Source: Escherichia phage vB_vPM_PD06
Sequence record: NC_052653.1
Reading direction: 5' to 3' (one strand)
DNA length: 64,000 nucleotides
Each line of letters begins with the position of its first letter. Positions within the stretch are counted from its first letter, which is position 1. The notes under the pieces were generated by a model. That model was given only the letters and a program-made list of their open reading frames with translations. It was not told where the DNA came from and made no database searches. The position numbers and the translations under genes were made by a program. Below are positions 30,883 through 33,938 of this stretch, piece by piece.

Positions 30883-30958
30883 TGGTCGTGGTAAACGGAG
30901 TCGAACCGTTGTTTCTCGATTATCGGTCGAGTGTACTAACCATCTGTACGATACCACA
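30883..30958 (-). tRNA. tRNA-Ile (anticodon GAT)
   Basis: Hand fold: 7 bp acceptor (U1-G72), T arm AACGG/TTCGACT/CCGTT, anticodon stem CTCGA/TCGAG, loop CCGATAA (C at position 33 is unusual), CCA encoded. Confidence 0.55.
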
Positions 30959-30963
30959 ATAAT

Positions 30964-31060
30964 TGGCAGCAAGGTGAGGAATCGAACCCCTTGATCTATG
31001 GTTTGGAGCCATATTGAGTACCATACTCTTTTAAATCTACCCAGCTATGAGTTCCTTGAG
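30964..31060 (-). ncRNA. tRNA-like sequence with Trp-type (CCA) anticodon hairpin, non-canonical 5' half
   Basis: T arm AGGGG/TTCGATT/CCTCA, 3' acceptor CCTTGCT-G-CCA, perfect hairpin TATGG-CTCCAAA-CCATA and D-like GAGT...ACTC, but no matching 5' acceptor strand at canonical distance. Confidence 0.3.
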
Positions 31061-31104
31061 GTGTCAATGTAATTTAATCATTACACCAGAAGGGAGGTAT
31101 TTAG

Positions 31105-31183
31105 TGGAGGCGGGAATCGGATTTGAACCGATGATCTCCAGCATATGAAACTGGCGAGGACGACCAGACTCCTCTATCCCGCG
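31105..31183 (-). tRNA. tRNA with CAT anticodon (elongator Met or Ile2 type)
   Basis: T arm ATCGG/TTCAAAT/CCGAT, anticodon stem CCAGT/GCTGG, loop TTCATAT, 11-nt D loop; position 1-72 is an unpaired C-C. Confidence 0.5.
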
Positions 31184-31198
31184 CAATCTGTAATAATT

Positions 31199-31283
31199 TG
31201 GTAGCTAAGGTGAGACTCGAACTCACAATCCCTTGGGGCAATACGTTCTAAGCGTATCGTGTATACCATTCCACCACTTAGCC
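31199..31283 (-). tRNA. tRNA-Leu (anticodon TAG), type II
   Basis: 85 nt; acceptor GGCTAAG/CTTAGCT, anticodon stem ATACG/CGTAT, loop CTTAGAA, long variable arm, T arm GTGAG/TTCGAGT/CTCAC, CCA encoded. Confidence 0.6.
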
Positions 31284-31360
31284 ATAATAAGTACACCACT
31301 GTAAGAAGCCTCAATGTGCTATTGACAGTTAACCAAGTCTACTCCTTGGATGGTGTTATT

Positions 31361-31435
31361 TGGTGCAGAGAGATGGTAACGATCCATCCTTTCTACCTTT
31401 TCAGGGTAGCACTAATCCGTCTCAGCTATCTCTGC
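31361..31435 (-). tRNA. tRNA-Phe (anticodon GAA)
   Basis: Perfect acceptor GCAGAGA/TCTCTGC, anticodon stem CTACC/GGTAG, loop CTGAAAA; T loop ATCGTTA is atypical. Confidence 0.5.
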
Positions 31436-31440
31436 AAATT

Positions 31441-31516
31441 TGGTCAGTGCGGCAGGACTCGAACCTGCGACCTGAAGCGTCCAAGGCTCCCACGCTACCA
31501 ACTGCGCTACGCACTG
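31441..31516 (-). tRNA. tRNA-Pro (anticodon TGG)
   Basis: 76 nt; acceptor CAGTGCG/CGCACTG, D arm GCGC/AGTTGGTA/GCGT, anticodon loop CTTGGAC, T arm GCAGG/TTCGAGT/CCTGC, CCA encoded. Confidence 0.7.
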
Positions 31517-31523
31517 TAAATCT

Positions 31524-31598
31524 TGGCTGGAGATCTAGGAATCGAACCTAGTCATCACGACTTCAAAGGCCGTTGCCTTCCCACTAGGCTAATCTCCA
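31524..31598 (-). tRNA. tRNA-Gln (anticodon TTG)
   Basis: 75 nt; acceptor TGGAGAT/ATCTCCA, anticodon stem ACGGC/GTCGT, loop CTTTGAA, T arm CTAGG/TTCGATT/CCTAG, CCA encoded. Confidence 0.6.
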
Positions 31599-32029
31599 AT
31601 AAATTACTTCAGTGTTACCACAAAGTGACGAACTGCTTTTCGTGCAGCAGAAGCCAGAGGCTTAGCATACTTAAGTTCATCTTTTTCCATTATAAATTCT
31701 CTTTTAAATGAAAATGCAGGACTTATTGGCATTGCCTGCGCAAGCCCTCAAGGGGAACATAGGTTTTTGGATATTTAACGACCAGGATAACCATAAACCC
31801 GTCATCATTCACATTCAAGAGGTACACCATAAAACTGCCGGGGTCTTAAAACTATAATGATTCGCAAATCATTAATCAGACAGTTCGATGGCTCCTCGAT
31901 TTTAGCTCACACTAAGGCAGTGAATCTCCAATAAACTAAAAAATCACTTAAAAAGAACCGCTAGAGTTTGAAGGAGAAAACCATGAGCGAAAAGAGAAAT
32001 TTTCTCTAGCGATTCCATTTAAATAATCT

Positions 32030-32104
32030 TGGAGCGAGTAACAGGACTTGAACCTGCACCTGGAGGGTGGAAACCTCATATGCTACCATTAACACTATAC
32101 CCGC
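32030..32104 (-). tRNA. tRNA-Gly (anticodon TCC)
   Basis: 75 nt; acceptor GCGGGTA/TACTCGC, anticodon loop TTTCCAC closed by a 4 bp stem with one mismatch, T arm GCAGG/TTCAAGT/CCTGT, CCA encoded. Confidence 0.5.
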
Positions 32105-32159
32105 TTAACAATATTACTCTAACATACTATTAGCCCCTTTGTCAAGAGGCTTTTGATAC

Positions 32160-32489
32160 TTATTTTAAAATAGTAGATGCACCACGTCTGTTTAGATATG
32201 CAATAGTAAAGTCCAAATCACCTATTTCTTCAGGTTCCCACTGACCTTCTAAGCCATAACAAGAACAATGATATGCGTGTACTTCATAAAACAAAGATGT
32301 TTTCATATCATAAAAATAAACGTGAGATTCACCTTCATAATATGCACAATCATAAGTGGCAGAAAGAATTACAATGTTATCCTTATCTAACTCTACTTCA
32401 TAATATCTTTCAACATCTTCAATATCATCAAAACCATCGAAAACATTGATATTAAAATATTTCTCTAACTCTTTTTCTGTCACATACAC
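32160..32489 (-). CDS. hypothetical protein inside tRNA array
   Basis: 109 aa acidic, Tyr/Cys-rich ORF between tRNA-Gly and tRNA-Thr. Confidence 0.45.
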   Translation of the reverse strand: MYVTEKELEKYFNINVFDGFDDIEDVERYYEVELDKDNIVILSATYDCAYYEGESHVYFYDMKTSLFYEVHAYHCSCYGLEGQWEPEEIGDLDFTIAYLNRRGASTILK

Positions 32490-32506
32490 TCCTTTAGAGT
32501 TAAAAT

Positions 32507-32581
32507 TGGTGCTCCCACAAGGACTCGAACCCTGATAAGTTGCTTACAAGGCAACCGTAATAGCCGTTATACGATAGGAGC
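32507..32581 (-). tRNA. tRNA-Thr (anticodon TGT)
   Basis: 75 nt; acceptor GCTCCTA/TGGGAGC, anticodon stem GTTGC/GCAAC, loop CTTGTAA, T arm CAGGG/TTCGAGT/CCTTG, CCA encoded. Confidence 0.6.
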
Positions 32582-32587
32582 AATACT

Positions 32588-32664
32588 TGGACTCGGCAGG
32601 ATTCGATACCTGCAATTCCAGAAGCCTCTTGGCGACTGGGGGTTTACCTTAACTCTACAAGTCC
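32588..32664 (-). ncRNA. tRNA-like sequence, non-canonical interior
   Basis: 7 bp acceptor-like pairing GGACTTG/CGAGTCC and perfect T stem GCAGG/CCTGC around 8-nt loop TATCGAAT, but no canonical 5-7-5 anticodon arm. Confidence 0.25.
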
Positions 32665-32671
32665 ATAATTC

Positions 32672-32756
32672 TGGCGATGGATCAAGGATTTGAACCTTGC
32701 TAGAACTTTCGTTCACGGATTAACAGTCCGTCGCCCAACCACTAGGCCAATCCATC
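32672..32756 (-). tRNA. tRNA with Asn anticodon (GTT) and a long variable arm (type II-like)
   Basis: 85 nt; acceptor GATGGAT/ATCCATC, anticodon arm ACGGA-CTGTTAA-TCCGT, 15-nt variable region GAACGAAAGTTCTAG forming a GAAC/GTTC stem with GAAA loop, T arm CAAGG/TTCAAAT/CCTTG, CCA encoded. Confidence 0.5.
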
Positions 32757-32763
32757 TTTAATT

Positions 32764-32850
32764 TGGTGCAGGTAGTTGGACTCGAACCAACGAAGCCCCG
32801 AAGGGCAAGAGATTTACAGTCTCCAGCAATTGCCGCTATGCGATACCTAC
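32764..32850 (-). tRNA. tRNA-Tyr (anticodon GTA), type II
   Basis: 87 nt; acceptor GTAGGTA/TACCTGC, anticodon stem GGAGA/TCTCT, loop CTGTAAA, variable arm GCCC-TTCG-GGGC, T arm GTTGG/TTCGAGT/CCAAC, CCA encoded. Confidence 0.65.
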
Positions 32851-32855
32851 GTGTT

Positions 32856-32931
32856 TGGTACATCGTGAAGGATTCGAACCTTCGACCTTGGAGTTAAAAG
32901 CACCTTGCTCTACCAACTAAGCTAACGATGT
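32856..32931 (-). tRNA. tRNA-Lys (anticodon TTT) with weakly paired anticodon stem
   Basis: 76 nt; perfect acceptor ACATCGT/ACGATGT, D arm GCTT/AGTTGGTA/GAGC, T arm GAAGG/TTCGAAT/CCTTC; anticodon loop CTTTTAA flanked by AGGTG/CTCCA with two mismatches. Confidence 0.5.
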
Positions 32932-33065
32932 ATAAATTATCTTTAAAATAGCCAGTGTTTGCGGCACTTAGCTATGAAGTATTGGGGTATCGGTAAAGTG
33001 GTTACCGCCACTTGCCGAAAGTTTACTCTGCTAAAGTAAGATTACAAGCTACATTAAAGATAACT

Positions 33066-33151
33066 TGGCGGTAGATGTAGGACTTGAACCTACACGCCGT
33101 TTCCGACGACAGTTTAGCAAACTGTTGTGGCTACCATTTCACCAATCTACC
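33066..33151 (-). tRNA. tRNA-Ser (anticodon GCT), type II
   Basis: 86 nt; acceptor GGTAGAT/ATCTACC, anticodon stem ACAGT/ACTGT, loop TTGCTAA, variable arm CGTCG-GAAA-CGGCG, T arm GTAGG/TTCAAGT/CCTAC, CCA encoded. Confidence 0.65.
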
Positions 33152-33159
33152 GTTCTTAA

Positions 33160-33312
33160 TTATTCAAAACAACCGGAATCTTTTTGTTCTGCTTTTACCA
33201 TACGAATATTTTTACCATCTTCAGATTGTTGAAGATTAGAATACTCATAAACAACTTTATTATCTACAATCTTAACTCCGGTAACAACCTGTCCAATAGT
33301 TTTATAATTCAT
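33160..33312 (-). CDS. small hypothetical protein (50 aa)
   Basis: Six-frame ORF 33160-33360 overlaps tRNA-Ser at its 5' end; internal ATG at 33312 has AGGAG upstream. Confidence 0.3.
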   Translation of the reverse strand: MNYKTIGQVVTGVKIVDNKVVYEYSNLQQSEDGKNIRMVKAEQKDSGCFE

Positions 33313-33330
33313 AAAGCTCCTAGTTGAATT

Positions 33331-33420
33331 TGGAGGAAGATAATGGAGTCGAACCATCACCGTATCGCTACAATGGGCCAGGGTTCAAACCTGGTTGCGC
33401 ACCGCTGCGCCCTACCTTCC
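33331..33420 (-). tRNA. tRNA-Ser (anticodon TGA), type II
   Basis: 90 nt; acceptor GGAAGGT/ATCTTCC, anticodon stem CCAGG/CCTGG, loop TTTGAAC, ~19-nt variable arm, T arm GATGG/TTCGACT/CCATT, CCA encoded. Confidence 0.6.
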
Positions 33421-33435
33421 CGTTATCATACTTTA

Positions 33436-33465
33436 AATCTAACATAAAACTATCTTGCTTGTCAA
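33436..33465 (-). promoter_or_regulatory. candidate sigma70-like promoter inside tRNA array
   Basis: Minus strand TTGACA, 18-nt spacer, TAGATT; upstream of tRNA-Ser(TGA). Confidence 0.3.
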
Positions 33466-33483
33466 GTAGTTTTTAAAACTTTT

Positions 33484-33565
33484 TGGTCGGGGTGACAGGA
33501 TTCGAACCTGCATACTCCAATTACTCGGTTAACGCCTGATTAGAAGTCAGGTGAGATACACCCCG
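33484..33565 (-). ncRNA. tRNA-Arg(TCT)-like sequence lacking a canonical D arm
   Basis: 7 bp GC-rich acceptor CGGGGTG/CACCCCG, T arm GCAGG/TTCGAAT/CCTGT, perfect hairpin CCTGA-CTTCTAA-TCAGG, but only 7 nt between acceptor and that hairpin and a 23-nt insert before the T arm. Confidence 0.35.
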
Positions 33566-33637
33566 TTTTCACAGTAACTATAACAAAAAACTAAGTGAAT
33601 GTCAAGATATTTTTACTAAAATTATTATTTAAATTGA

Positions 33638-33743
33638 AGCCTAGTTATGGAATCGAACCATATTTCGTATTTAGTTAGACAAAGCGGTCTAACATATTTT
33701 TCAGGCTTTGATGGCCTCGGAATTACCAAATACCCTACTAGGC
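33638..33743 (-). ncRNA. 106-nt tRNA-like element
   Basis: T arm TATGG/TTCGATT/CCATA and exact 7 bp acceptor pairing GCCTAGT/ACTAGGC 106 nt apart; interior has hairpins AGGC-CATCAAA-GCCT and GTTAGAC-CGCTTT-GTCTAAC; no CCA encoded. Confidence 0.25.
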
Positions 33744-33745
33744 GT

Positions 33746-33831
33746 TGGTGCAAGTGGAGGGATTCGAACCCTCAATCATTTAAGCGTTGCGTTTTAAGCA
33801 CAATGTGTATCACCAATTCCACCACACTTGC
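33746..33831 (-). tRNA. tRNA-Leu (anticodon TAA), type II
   Basis: 86 nt; acceptor GCAAGTG/CACTTGC, anticodon stem TTGTG/CGCAA, loop CTTAAAA, T arm GAGGG/TTCGAAT/CCCTC, CCA encoded. Confidence 0.6.
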
Positions 33832-33862
33832 ATATAGGAGATGCATAGCATCTCCTTTTAAA

Positions 33863-33938
33863 TGGTGGTTCCCCAGGGTTACAATCCCTGCCCTCGACAC
33901 TTATGAGGTGTGCGCTCTCGTCAGTGAGCTATGGAACC
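33863..33938 (-). tRNA. tRNA with CAT anticodon (second copy; Met or Ile2 type)
   Basis: 76 nt; D arm GCTC/GAGC perfect, anticodon loop CTCATAA, T stem CAGGG/CCCTG with atypical loop ATTGTAA, acceptor has one mismatch at 7-66. Confidence 0.45.

Follow-up and report, generated by a model that had tools for sequence, protein, structure and literature searches.

A textbook rule holds that, in bacteria, long variable arms are limited to tRNAs for leucine, serine and tyrosine (and selenocysteine). A 64,000-nucleotide stretch of the genome of Escherichia phage vB_vPM_PD06 (NC_052653.1; hereafter, the window) contains a gene which, in a preliminary description made from the sequence alone, was read as a tRNA combining the asparagine anticodon GTT with a Tyr/Ser-style long variable arm. 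Is this gene a genuine asparagine tRNA, is the additional hairpin an accident or a selected feature, and what could such an arm do for a phage?

A phage tRNA-Asn gene with a fourth hairpin

ARAGORN calls a tRNA-Asn gene with ends identical to those of the preliminary description (32672-32756), on the minus strand, and the anticodon arm ACGGA-CTGTTAA-TCCGT followed by a 15-nt insert with a GAAC/GTTC stem and a GAAA loop is present there in full. Scoring against a covariance model, suggested as a check in the same description, gave 56.5 bits with the Rfam tRNA model RF00005 (gathering score 29, E=1e-10), 12 nt of the variable region being scored as an insertion. The minimum free energy (MFE) and centroid structures both correspond to a cloverleaf with a fourth hairpin, GAAC/GUUC capped by GAAA (-29.5 kcal/mol, z=-2.6 versus shuffled sequences), and no alternative fold with a different anticodon, one of the objections foreseen, was found by MFE and centroid folding. 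Since the ARAGORN call, the Rfam score and the MFE fold agree, the structure as first described is confirmed in every detail. The parts of the gene are listed below; alignment A1 comprises 17 distinct long-arm tRNA-Asn sequences in exact register.

32672..32756, minus strand: tRNA-Asn(GUU) gene, 85 nt with encoded CCA, GAUGGAUUGGCCUAGUGGUUGGGCGACGGACUGUUAAUCCGUGAACGAAAGUUCUAGCAAGGUUCAAAUCCUUGAUCCAUCGCCA (ARAGORN, Rfam, MFE fold, annotations in phage records)
32750..32756, minus strand: 5′ strand of the acceptor stem, GAUGGAU, with G1-C72 and A2-U71 (all 7 of 7 acceptor pairs covary and are 100% paired in A1)
32733..32747, minus strand: D arm, GCCU-AGUGGUU-GGGC, preceded by U8 and G9 (Rfam; 3 of 4 pairs covary)
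32715..32731, minus strand: anticodon stem-loop, ACGGA-CUGUUAA-UCCGU, anticodon GUU at 32722-32724 (sequence comparison)
32700..32714, minus strand: long variable arm, GAACGAAAGUUCUAG, that is GAAC-GAAA-GUUC plus UAG (fold and covariation)
32683..32699, minus strand: T arm, CAAGG-UUCAAAU-CCUUG (Rfam, alignment A1)
32676..32682, minus strand: 3′ strand of the acceptor stem, AUCCAUC (alignment A1)
32672..32675, minus strand: discriminator G73 (32675) and encoded CCA (32672-32674) (sequence)

The full 85-nt RNA thus reads GAUGGAU-UG-GCCUAGUGGUUGGGC-G-ACGGA CUGUUAA UCCGU-GAACGAAAGUUCUAG-CAAGG UUCAAAU CCUUG-AUCCAUC-G-CCA. It displays the features captured by RF00005, namely, a 7-bp acceptor stem, a D arm with GG, a 5-bp anticodon stem with a 7-nt loop containing U33, and a 5-bp T stem with a UUCRANY loop. 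The variable region consists of a 4-bp stem, a GNRA tetraloop (GAAA) and a 3-nt UAG linker on the 3′ side, and conforms to the class II architecture, in which the anticodon and T arms are separated by more than 10 nt that fold as a stem-loop; the class I pattern of bacterial tRNA-Asn, a 4-5-nt variable loop, is replaced by this 15-nt hairpin. The locus 32672-32756 is a genuine phage tRNA for asparagine with a conserved extra hairpin.

The premise that bacterial tRNA-Asn is normally class I holds for the E. coli host, in which a 76-nt tRNA-Asn with a 5-nt variable loop is encoded in about four copies per genome in 5,425 of 5,426 genomes. The host and window molecules share GUU, G73, a 17-nt anticodon stem-loop identical except at position 27, and the sequence context for Q34 and t6A37 (U33-G34-U35 and U36-A37), but they differ in the variable loop (5 nt in the host), in the 1:72 pair (U1-A72 in the host), and in the D arm and acceptor stem. 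Outside the anticodon arm, the host tRNA is no more similar to the window copy than are unrelated tRNAs.

The gene lies within a dense cluster with the local order Ser-Ser-Lys-Tyr-Asn-(tRNA-like)-Thr:

30883..33938, minus strand: tRNA array with 15 tRNAs called by ARAGORN and at least two tRNA-like RNAs (ARAGORN, Rfam)
33465-33436, minus strand: promoter-like TTGACA with an extended -10, upstream (consensus match only)
30769-30751, minus strand: terminator-like hairpin (consensus match only)

On the coding strand, four promoter-like sites combine a perfect TTGACA with a TG-extended -10 (34272-34243, 33605-33577, 33465-33436 and 32145-32116, minus strand) and are spread over the array; with the terminator-like hairpin, they suggest that it comprises several tRNA transcription units.

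Conservation and distribution of the long arm

The tRNA-Asn sequence recurs with 100% identity in about 50 phage genome records and is mostly annotated as plain tRNA-Asn; given that it is annotated in many GenBank records, the existence of the gene is not new. Its 2-kb surroundings are 96-99% identical to those of the phi92-like E. coli myophages SD2, PHB05 and 'alia' (~147 kb), members of the genus Justusliebigvirus in the Stephanstirmvirinae. Full-length homologues of 85-86 nt are encoded by Klebsiella phage KP13-26, Citrobacter phage Tr1, the Salmonella phages SSE121 and NINP13076 (Vequintavirinae), and phAPEC8/ESCO13 (Phapecoctavirus). The backbones of these relatives are nearly alike, yet their variable (V) stems differ while remaining complementary: GAAC/GUUC in the window, GAGA/UCUC in KP13-26, GAGG/CCUC in Tr1, GAGU/ACUC in SSE121 and GUUC/GAAC in phAPEC8. 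Across A1 (n=17), the V helix is paired in 100% of the sequences, and three of its four pairs are changed on both sides, in 8, 10 and 7 sequences, respectively; no change is seen in the first pair (G-C) or in the middle A of the 3′ linker. The complete five-helix structure is 98% paired, compared to 70% for shuffled sequences and 33-48% when the partners are slid. The preliminary description had allowed for either an insertion or an evolved feature and had listed related phage arrays as a comparison to be made. This comparison, in which the hairpin is retained through compensatory changes in many lineages, supports the latter and speaks against a recent or accidental insertion. Because the stems of the relatives change and nevertheless stay complementary, the interpretation of the arm as an evolved, selected module is strongly supported.

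The design extends well beyond these relatives. A pattern combining the tRNA-Asn anticodon arm with a long variable region produced at least 120 matches in viral contigs, and most of the matches listed were confirmed by ARAGORN as tRNA-Asn of 79-91 nt. From this and later scans, 93 distinct long-arm tRNA-Asn sequences were collected, in 88 of which the V region folds as a hairpin; the mean energy of the V regions is -3.29 kcal/mol, and shuffling them raises it to -0.58 (sd 0.10). The typical arm measures 11-19 nt (mode 15), its stem of 3-4 bp being preceded by 0-1 nt and followed by 3-4 unpaired nt. Stable tetraloops (GNRA, UUCG) predominate, GNRA being typical and GAAA present in 41 of the 93 sequences. 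Carriers include T5-like phages, with 263 records of a near-identical 83-nt long-arm gene (for example, SSP1 and SP15), as well as T4-like and jumbo-phage contigs, and some viral contigs hold class I and long-arm tRNA-Asn together. The arm thus persists over very divergent backbones and hosts.

When both classes were accepted in the viral scan, 16 long-arm and 97 class I tRNA-Asn were recovered (about 14%), and a second scan with the anticodon stem left free gave a share of about 7-10%; overall, long-arm genes account for about 7-15% of the tRNA-Asn in viral contigs. By comparison, 185,579 bacterial and archaeal genomes yielded 71 pattern matches, of which about 20 are real and the rest are due to chance; most of these real cellular genes lie in arrays of 10-36 tRNAs of the prophage or mobile-element type. 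Neither the 5,426 complete E. coli genomes nor the 72,556 plasmids searched contain the window gene itself. The long-arm design is thus widespread among phages and mobile elements with tRNA arrays but hardly ever occurs in cellular genomes. No description of long-arm tRNA-Asn, in particular of its class II architecture, covariation and viral enrichment, was found in the papers searched, a set to which the older T5/BF23 tRNA papers do not belong.

Asparagine is not the only isotype concerned. A tally covering viral loci L001-L224 and L305-L412 shows that tRNAs for Ile, Cys, Thr, Met, Phe, Glu and Trp also bear, at low frequency, long V hairpins with this geometry, for example, in 12/35 Ile(UAU), 8/65 Cys(GCA), 7/68 Ile(GAU), 6/93 Thr(UGU) and 6/147 Met genes, and no long arm was found in Lys(UUU), 0/76, or in Arg(UCU) in the same loci. 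As a separate observation, no long arm is present in about 44% of the genes that ARAGORN types as 'tRNA-Leu' in these loci, and these calls may be mis-typed.

Amino-acid identity

In E. coli, asparaginyl-tRNA synthetase (AsnRS) recognizes the three anticodon bases and G73 (PMC9976931), and the window tRNA has the complete set, G34-U35-U36 at 32722-32724 and G73 at 32675. G73 is found in 84 of 86 long-arm tRNA-Asn sequences, in which the 1:72 pair is U-A in 57 cases and G-C in 28. The acceptor ends of the tRNAs in the viral loci compare as follows:

Long-arm Asn: 1:72 U-A in 48 and G-C in 29; 2:71 not distinctive; G73 in 74/78
Class I Asn: 1:72 U-A in 129 and G-C in 32; 2:71 not distinctive; G73 in 160/165
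Tyr: A73 in 75/75
Leu: A73 in 101/101
Ser: 1:72 G-C in 113/124; 2:71 G-C in 117/124

By these statistics, long-arm tRNA-Asn resembles class I tRNA-Asn rather than tRNAs for Tyr, Leu or Ser. Hence, the earlier suggestion that the arm might alter recognition by synthetases appears unlikely, with G73, GUU and the acceptor end all matching class I tRNA-Asn, and we consider it likely that the host AsnRS charges the molecule.

As for the arm, its description as 'Tyr/Ser-style' is borne out only in its first half. Phage tRNA-Tyr (1 nt, a 3-bp stem and 3 nt on the 3′ side) has the organization of the long-arm family, in which 0-1 nt precede and 3-4 nt follow a stem of 3-4 bp with a tetraloop; it shares G34-U35 and is encoded by the neighbouring gene of the array, but has A73 and A36 in place of the G73 and U36 of the window tRNA-Asn; the phage's own tRNA-Tyr shows no sequence affinity to the latter. 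The arm of phage tRNA-Ser, by contrast, is 16-21 nt long with 5-7 bp and 1 nt on the 3′ side, and that of tRNA-Leu leaves 2 nt on the 3′ side. The gene is therefore best regarded as an asparagine tRNA with a Tyr-type arm. The allo-tRNAs and tRNA-Sec (Mukai et al. 2017; Krahn et al. 2020) likewise combine a long arm with anticodons other than those for Leu, Ser or Tyr and occur in phages and polycistronic tRNA clusters; these have 8/4, 9/3, 8/5 or 9/4 branches and Ser-type identity, whereas the window copy, with a 7-bp acceptor stem and a 5-bp T stem, is 7/5 and Asn-type. An attempt to trace its origin by sequence similarity, either to a tRNA-Asn that acquired an insertion or to a tRNA-Tyr or tRNA-Ser that switched anticodon, gave no clear affinity to any tRNA; the acceptor-end statistics alone point to an Asn origin.

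Possible roles of the arm

A potential role for the arm is suggested by defence nucleases that attack tRNAs. AriB of the PARIS system and P2 OLD are Toprim defence nucleases acting on the anticodon stem (PMC12409363 and PMC12445682). AriB cuts the E. coli tRNAs Lys(UUU) and Thr(UGU) and, with lower efficiency, Asn(GUU) at 40|41, adjacent to a U36-A-A-U39 motif; a second contact, at D-loop U16/U17, is predicted by an AlphaFold 3 model and supported by a U16->C mutant (PMC12409363). For P2 OLD, the cuts fall 3′ of C28 and of C40, within CNG motifs on either strand of the stem; tRNA-Asn(GUU) was one of the tRNAs assayed, and Thr(UGU) was the fastest substrate (PMC12445682). The variable arm goes unmentioned in both papers, in which the word 'variable' does not occur.

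The anticodon stem-loop of the window tRNA-Asn retains both host motifs, U36AAUC|C41 and C28-G29-G30 / C40-C41-G42. The phage tRNA-Lys(UUU) (32856-32931, minus strand) carries A27·A43 and U30·U40 mismatches and C39 (UAACUC), and the phage tRNA-Thr(UGU) (32507-32581, minus strand) has G39 (UAAGCA) and lacks CNG motifs, so that these two tRNAs are altered exactly at the positions relevant for AriB and P2 OLD. Because tRNA-Asn keeps the nuclease motifs which tRNA-Lys and tRNA-Thr have lost, we infer that its arm might shield or disguise it. Under this proposal, the molecule would act as an elongator tRNA reading AAC/AAU and inserting asparagine; by keeping G34-U35-U36 and G73, it would offer everything that E. 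coli AsnRS is known to read, and, with an anticodon stem-loop that is identical to that of the host, decoding and anticodon-loop modification could run as for the host tRNA. The 4-bp GAAA hairpin, a selected module with tyrosine-tRNA geometry, would reshape the tRNA at the junction between its core and the 3′ strand of the anticodon stem. Nucleases of the host or of prophages (AriB at 40|41, P2 OLD at the C28 and C40 motifs) would then cleave the phage copy poorly, with the identity and decoding sequence left untouched. Taken as a whole, the reading of the gene as a functional Asn tRNA for AAC/AAU codons whose arm makes it a poor substrate for defence nucleases is the one we tentatively adopt, at somewhat below an even chance; nuclease evasion by the arm, considered on its own, is a possibility that we regard as rather doubtful. 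A generalization, according to which the Tyr-type arm would be a widespread phage disguise hiding otherwise host-identical tRNAs from anticodon-stem nucleases such as AriB or OLD-family Toprim enzymes by shape and not by altering the cut site, is unlikely to a similar degree, but, if true, would explain why long-arm tRNAs for Asn, Thr(UGU), Ile, Cys and further class I isotypes are frequent in phages and in mobile elements with tRNA arrays and nearly missing from cells.

Several observations weaken the shield proposal. The isotypes that gained arms do not follow the AriB and OLD targets: the match is partial, with Asn and Thr(UGU) conforming, Lys(UUU), the best AriB substrate, failing to do so, and Ile(UAU) and Cys left without explanation. 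A host-like tRNA-Asn of class I is encoded by many enterobacterial phages. Furthermore, T5 evades the nuclease by sequence change within a class I molecule. The T5 tRNA-Asn(GUU) resembles the window copy in being phage-encoded within a large tRNA array and followed by a homologous tRNA-like RNA, and it is functionally tied to AriB evasion, with the Lys, Thr and Asn tRNAs of T5 jointly neutralizing PARIS (PMC12409363). However, it is a 78-nt class I tRNA with substitutions and mismatches in the anticodon stem relative to the host, whereas the window copy retains the host anticodon stem and gains the arm; other T5-like phages (SSP1, SP15, Epseptimavirus), unlike T5, carry the long-arm form. The T5 tRNA-Asn being class I, the published functional data concern another design, and the T5/PARIS experiments were accordingly rejected as a test of the arm.

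Escherichia phage SelmaRatti (Bas34) was considered as a further test. Its annotated 77-nt tRNA-Asn is really of the long-arm type (locus L304, about 20599-20681; V arm GUCGAAAGACAAC), and this tRNA is insufficient against PARIS, plasmid-borne T5 tRNA-Asn being needed for escape (PMC12409363). The Bas34 gene is probably defective, because its 3′ acceptor strand ACCCGCU cannot pair with GGGUCGU, a defect that could explain the need for the T5 tRNA. The broken acceptor stem makes Bas34 uninformative with respect to the long arm, and it was set aside. From a different angle, AsnRS, like other class II synthetases, docks on the variable-loop side of its tRNA, where the arm might get in the way of charging.

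With T5, Bas34, the class I carriers and the isotype pattern all weakening the shield, a structural role unrelated to defence is a serious rival, to which we assign a limited probability. The arm of a functional Asn tRNA might aid folding or stabilize a tRNA that is made fast and under-modified, or it could be a historical add-on, spread by gene exchange among phage tRNA arrays, with the hairpin kept since an unstructured 15-nt loop would be harmful. The occurrence of hairpins of the same geometry in Ile, Cys, Thr, Met, Phe, Glu and Trp tRNAs, with no clear link to nuclease targets, the dominance of stable tetraloops, as in a purely structural element, and the coexistence of class I and long-arm tRNA-Asn in some contigs are all compatible with such a role, but the gap in frequency between viruses and cells, which we judge to span orders of magnitude, would be hard to explain for a neutral or generally stabilizing feature, and so would the persistence of the arm over such divergent backbones and hosts.

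It is improbable, by our estimate, that the arm serves as a handle for a processing or modification enzyme, or that the tRNA, instead of mainly serving translation, acts as a decoy for an effector that targets tRNAs or inhibits it by competition. The authors of PMC12409363 do suggest that over-expressed viral tRNAs may inhibit AriB by competition, and the invariance of the first V-stem pair and the middle linker A, along with the location of the gene in a dense array holding other odd tRNA-like RNAs, could fit a binding role. Nevertheless, the conservation of all standard tRNA features and of the Asn identity elements points to use in translation, and no candidate partner was identified.

Less probable still is a redirection of the tRNA, by the arm, G73 and G1-C72 to SerRS, or by the Tyr-like arm and G34-U35 to TyrRS, with Asn codons consequently being read in part as Ser or Tyr. 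The long arm is the main element read by E. coli SerRS, which takes no account of the anticodon and for which G73 is a determinant (PMC9976931), an allo-tRNA with G73 inserted serine in E. coli (PMC5389517), and the geometry of the arm equals that of tRNA-Tyr. Yet, bacterial tRNA-Ser has G2-C71 (117/124 in phages) where the window copy has A2-U71, most members of the long-arm family have U1-A72, and the 4-bp arm is shorter than that of tRNA-Ser, its 3-nt 3′ linker being of the wrong length. The A73 of tRNA-Tyr and tRNA-Leu is replaced by G73, an antideterminant against TyrRS and LeuRS, both of which need A73 (PMC9976931), and proteome-wide missense at Asn codons would be costly. Mischarging by SerRS or TyrRS is thus unlikely. 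Finally, a decaying, non-functional tRNA with an accidental insertion, which a lone-sequence reading could not rule out and of which the broken acceptor stem of Bas34 is a reminder, is effectively refuted by the five intact, covarying helices, the conservation of the arm in hundreds of genomes, the encoded CCA and the position within a promoter-led array.

Whichever role the arm has, asparagine represents a fourth isotype, beyond Leu, Ser and Tyr, bearing a long arm conserved by covariation, and its carriers include well-used model and therapeutic phage groups (phi92-like, phAPEC8-like, many T5-like and T4-like phages). The gene offers an entry to the questions of how phage tRNAs escape a growing list of tRNA-cleaving defence systems and how much structural change a class II synthetase such as AsnRS tolerates, and it bears on annotation and on the design of orthogonal or nuclease-resistant tRNAs.

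Other members of the array are also unusual. Directly downstream of tRNA-Asn lies a tRNA-like RNA (32582-32671, minus strand; MFE -28.5 kcal/mol, z=-3.5) in which an acceptor stem and a T arm are combined with an unusual D region and an unusual anticodon arm; its homologue in T5, the 'rna3 putative tRNA-like RNA', also follows tRNA-Asn, and an Asn-Thr gap of roughly 90 nt recurs in phAPEC8 and ESCO13. A second tRNA-like gene (33487-33565, minus strand), missed by ARAGORN and scored at 40 bits by Rfam, has the anticodon UCU (Arg AGA; loop CUUCUAA) and normal acceptor stem, anticodon arm and T arm, with ~4 nt replacing the D arm and a 22-23-nt variable region containing a hairpin; an ordinary tRNA-Arg is absent from the array (30883..33938). 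This gene is conserved in at least 237 phage records, for the most part without annotation; Felix O1 (84% identity) is among them. The tRNA-Ser(UGA) at 33331-33420 (minus strand) scores best against the tRNA-Sec model, at 35 bits, below the threshold, and tRNA-Phe (31361-31435, minus strand) and the second tRNA-Met (33863-33938, minus strand) have the non-canonical T loops GAUCGUUAC and GAUUGUAAC, respectively.
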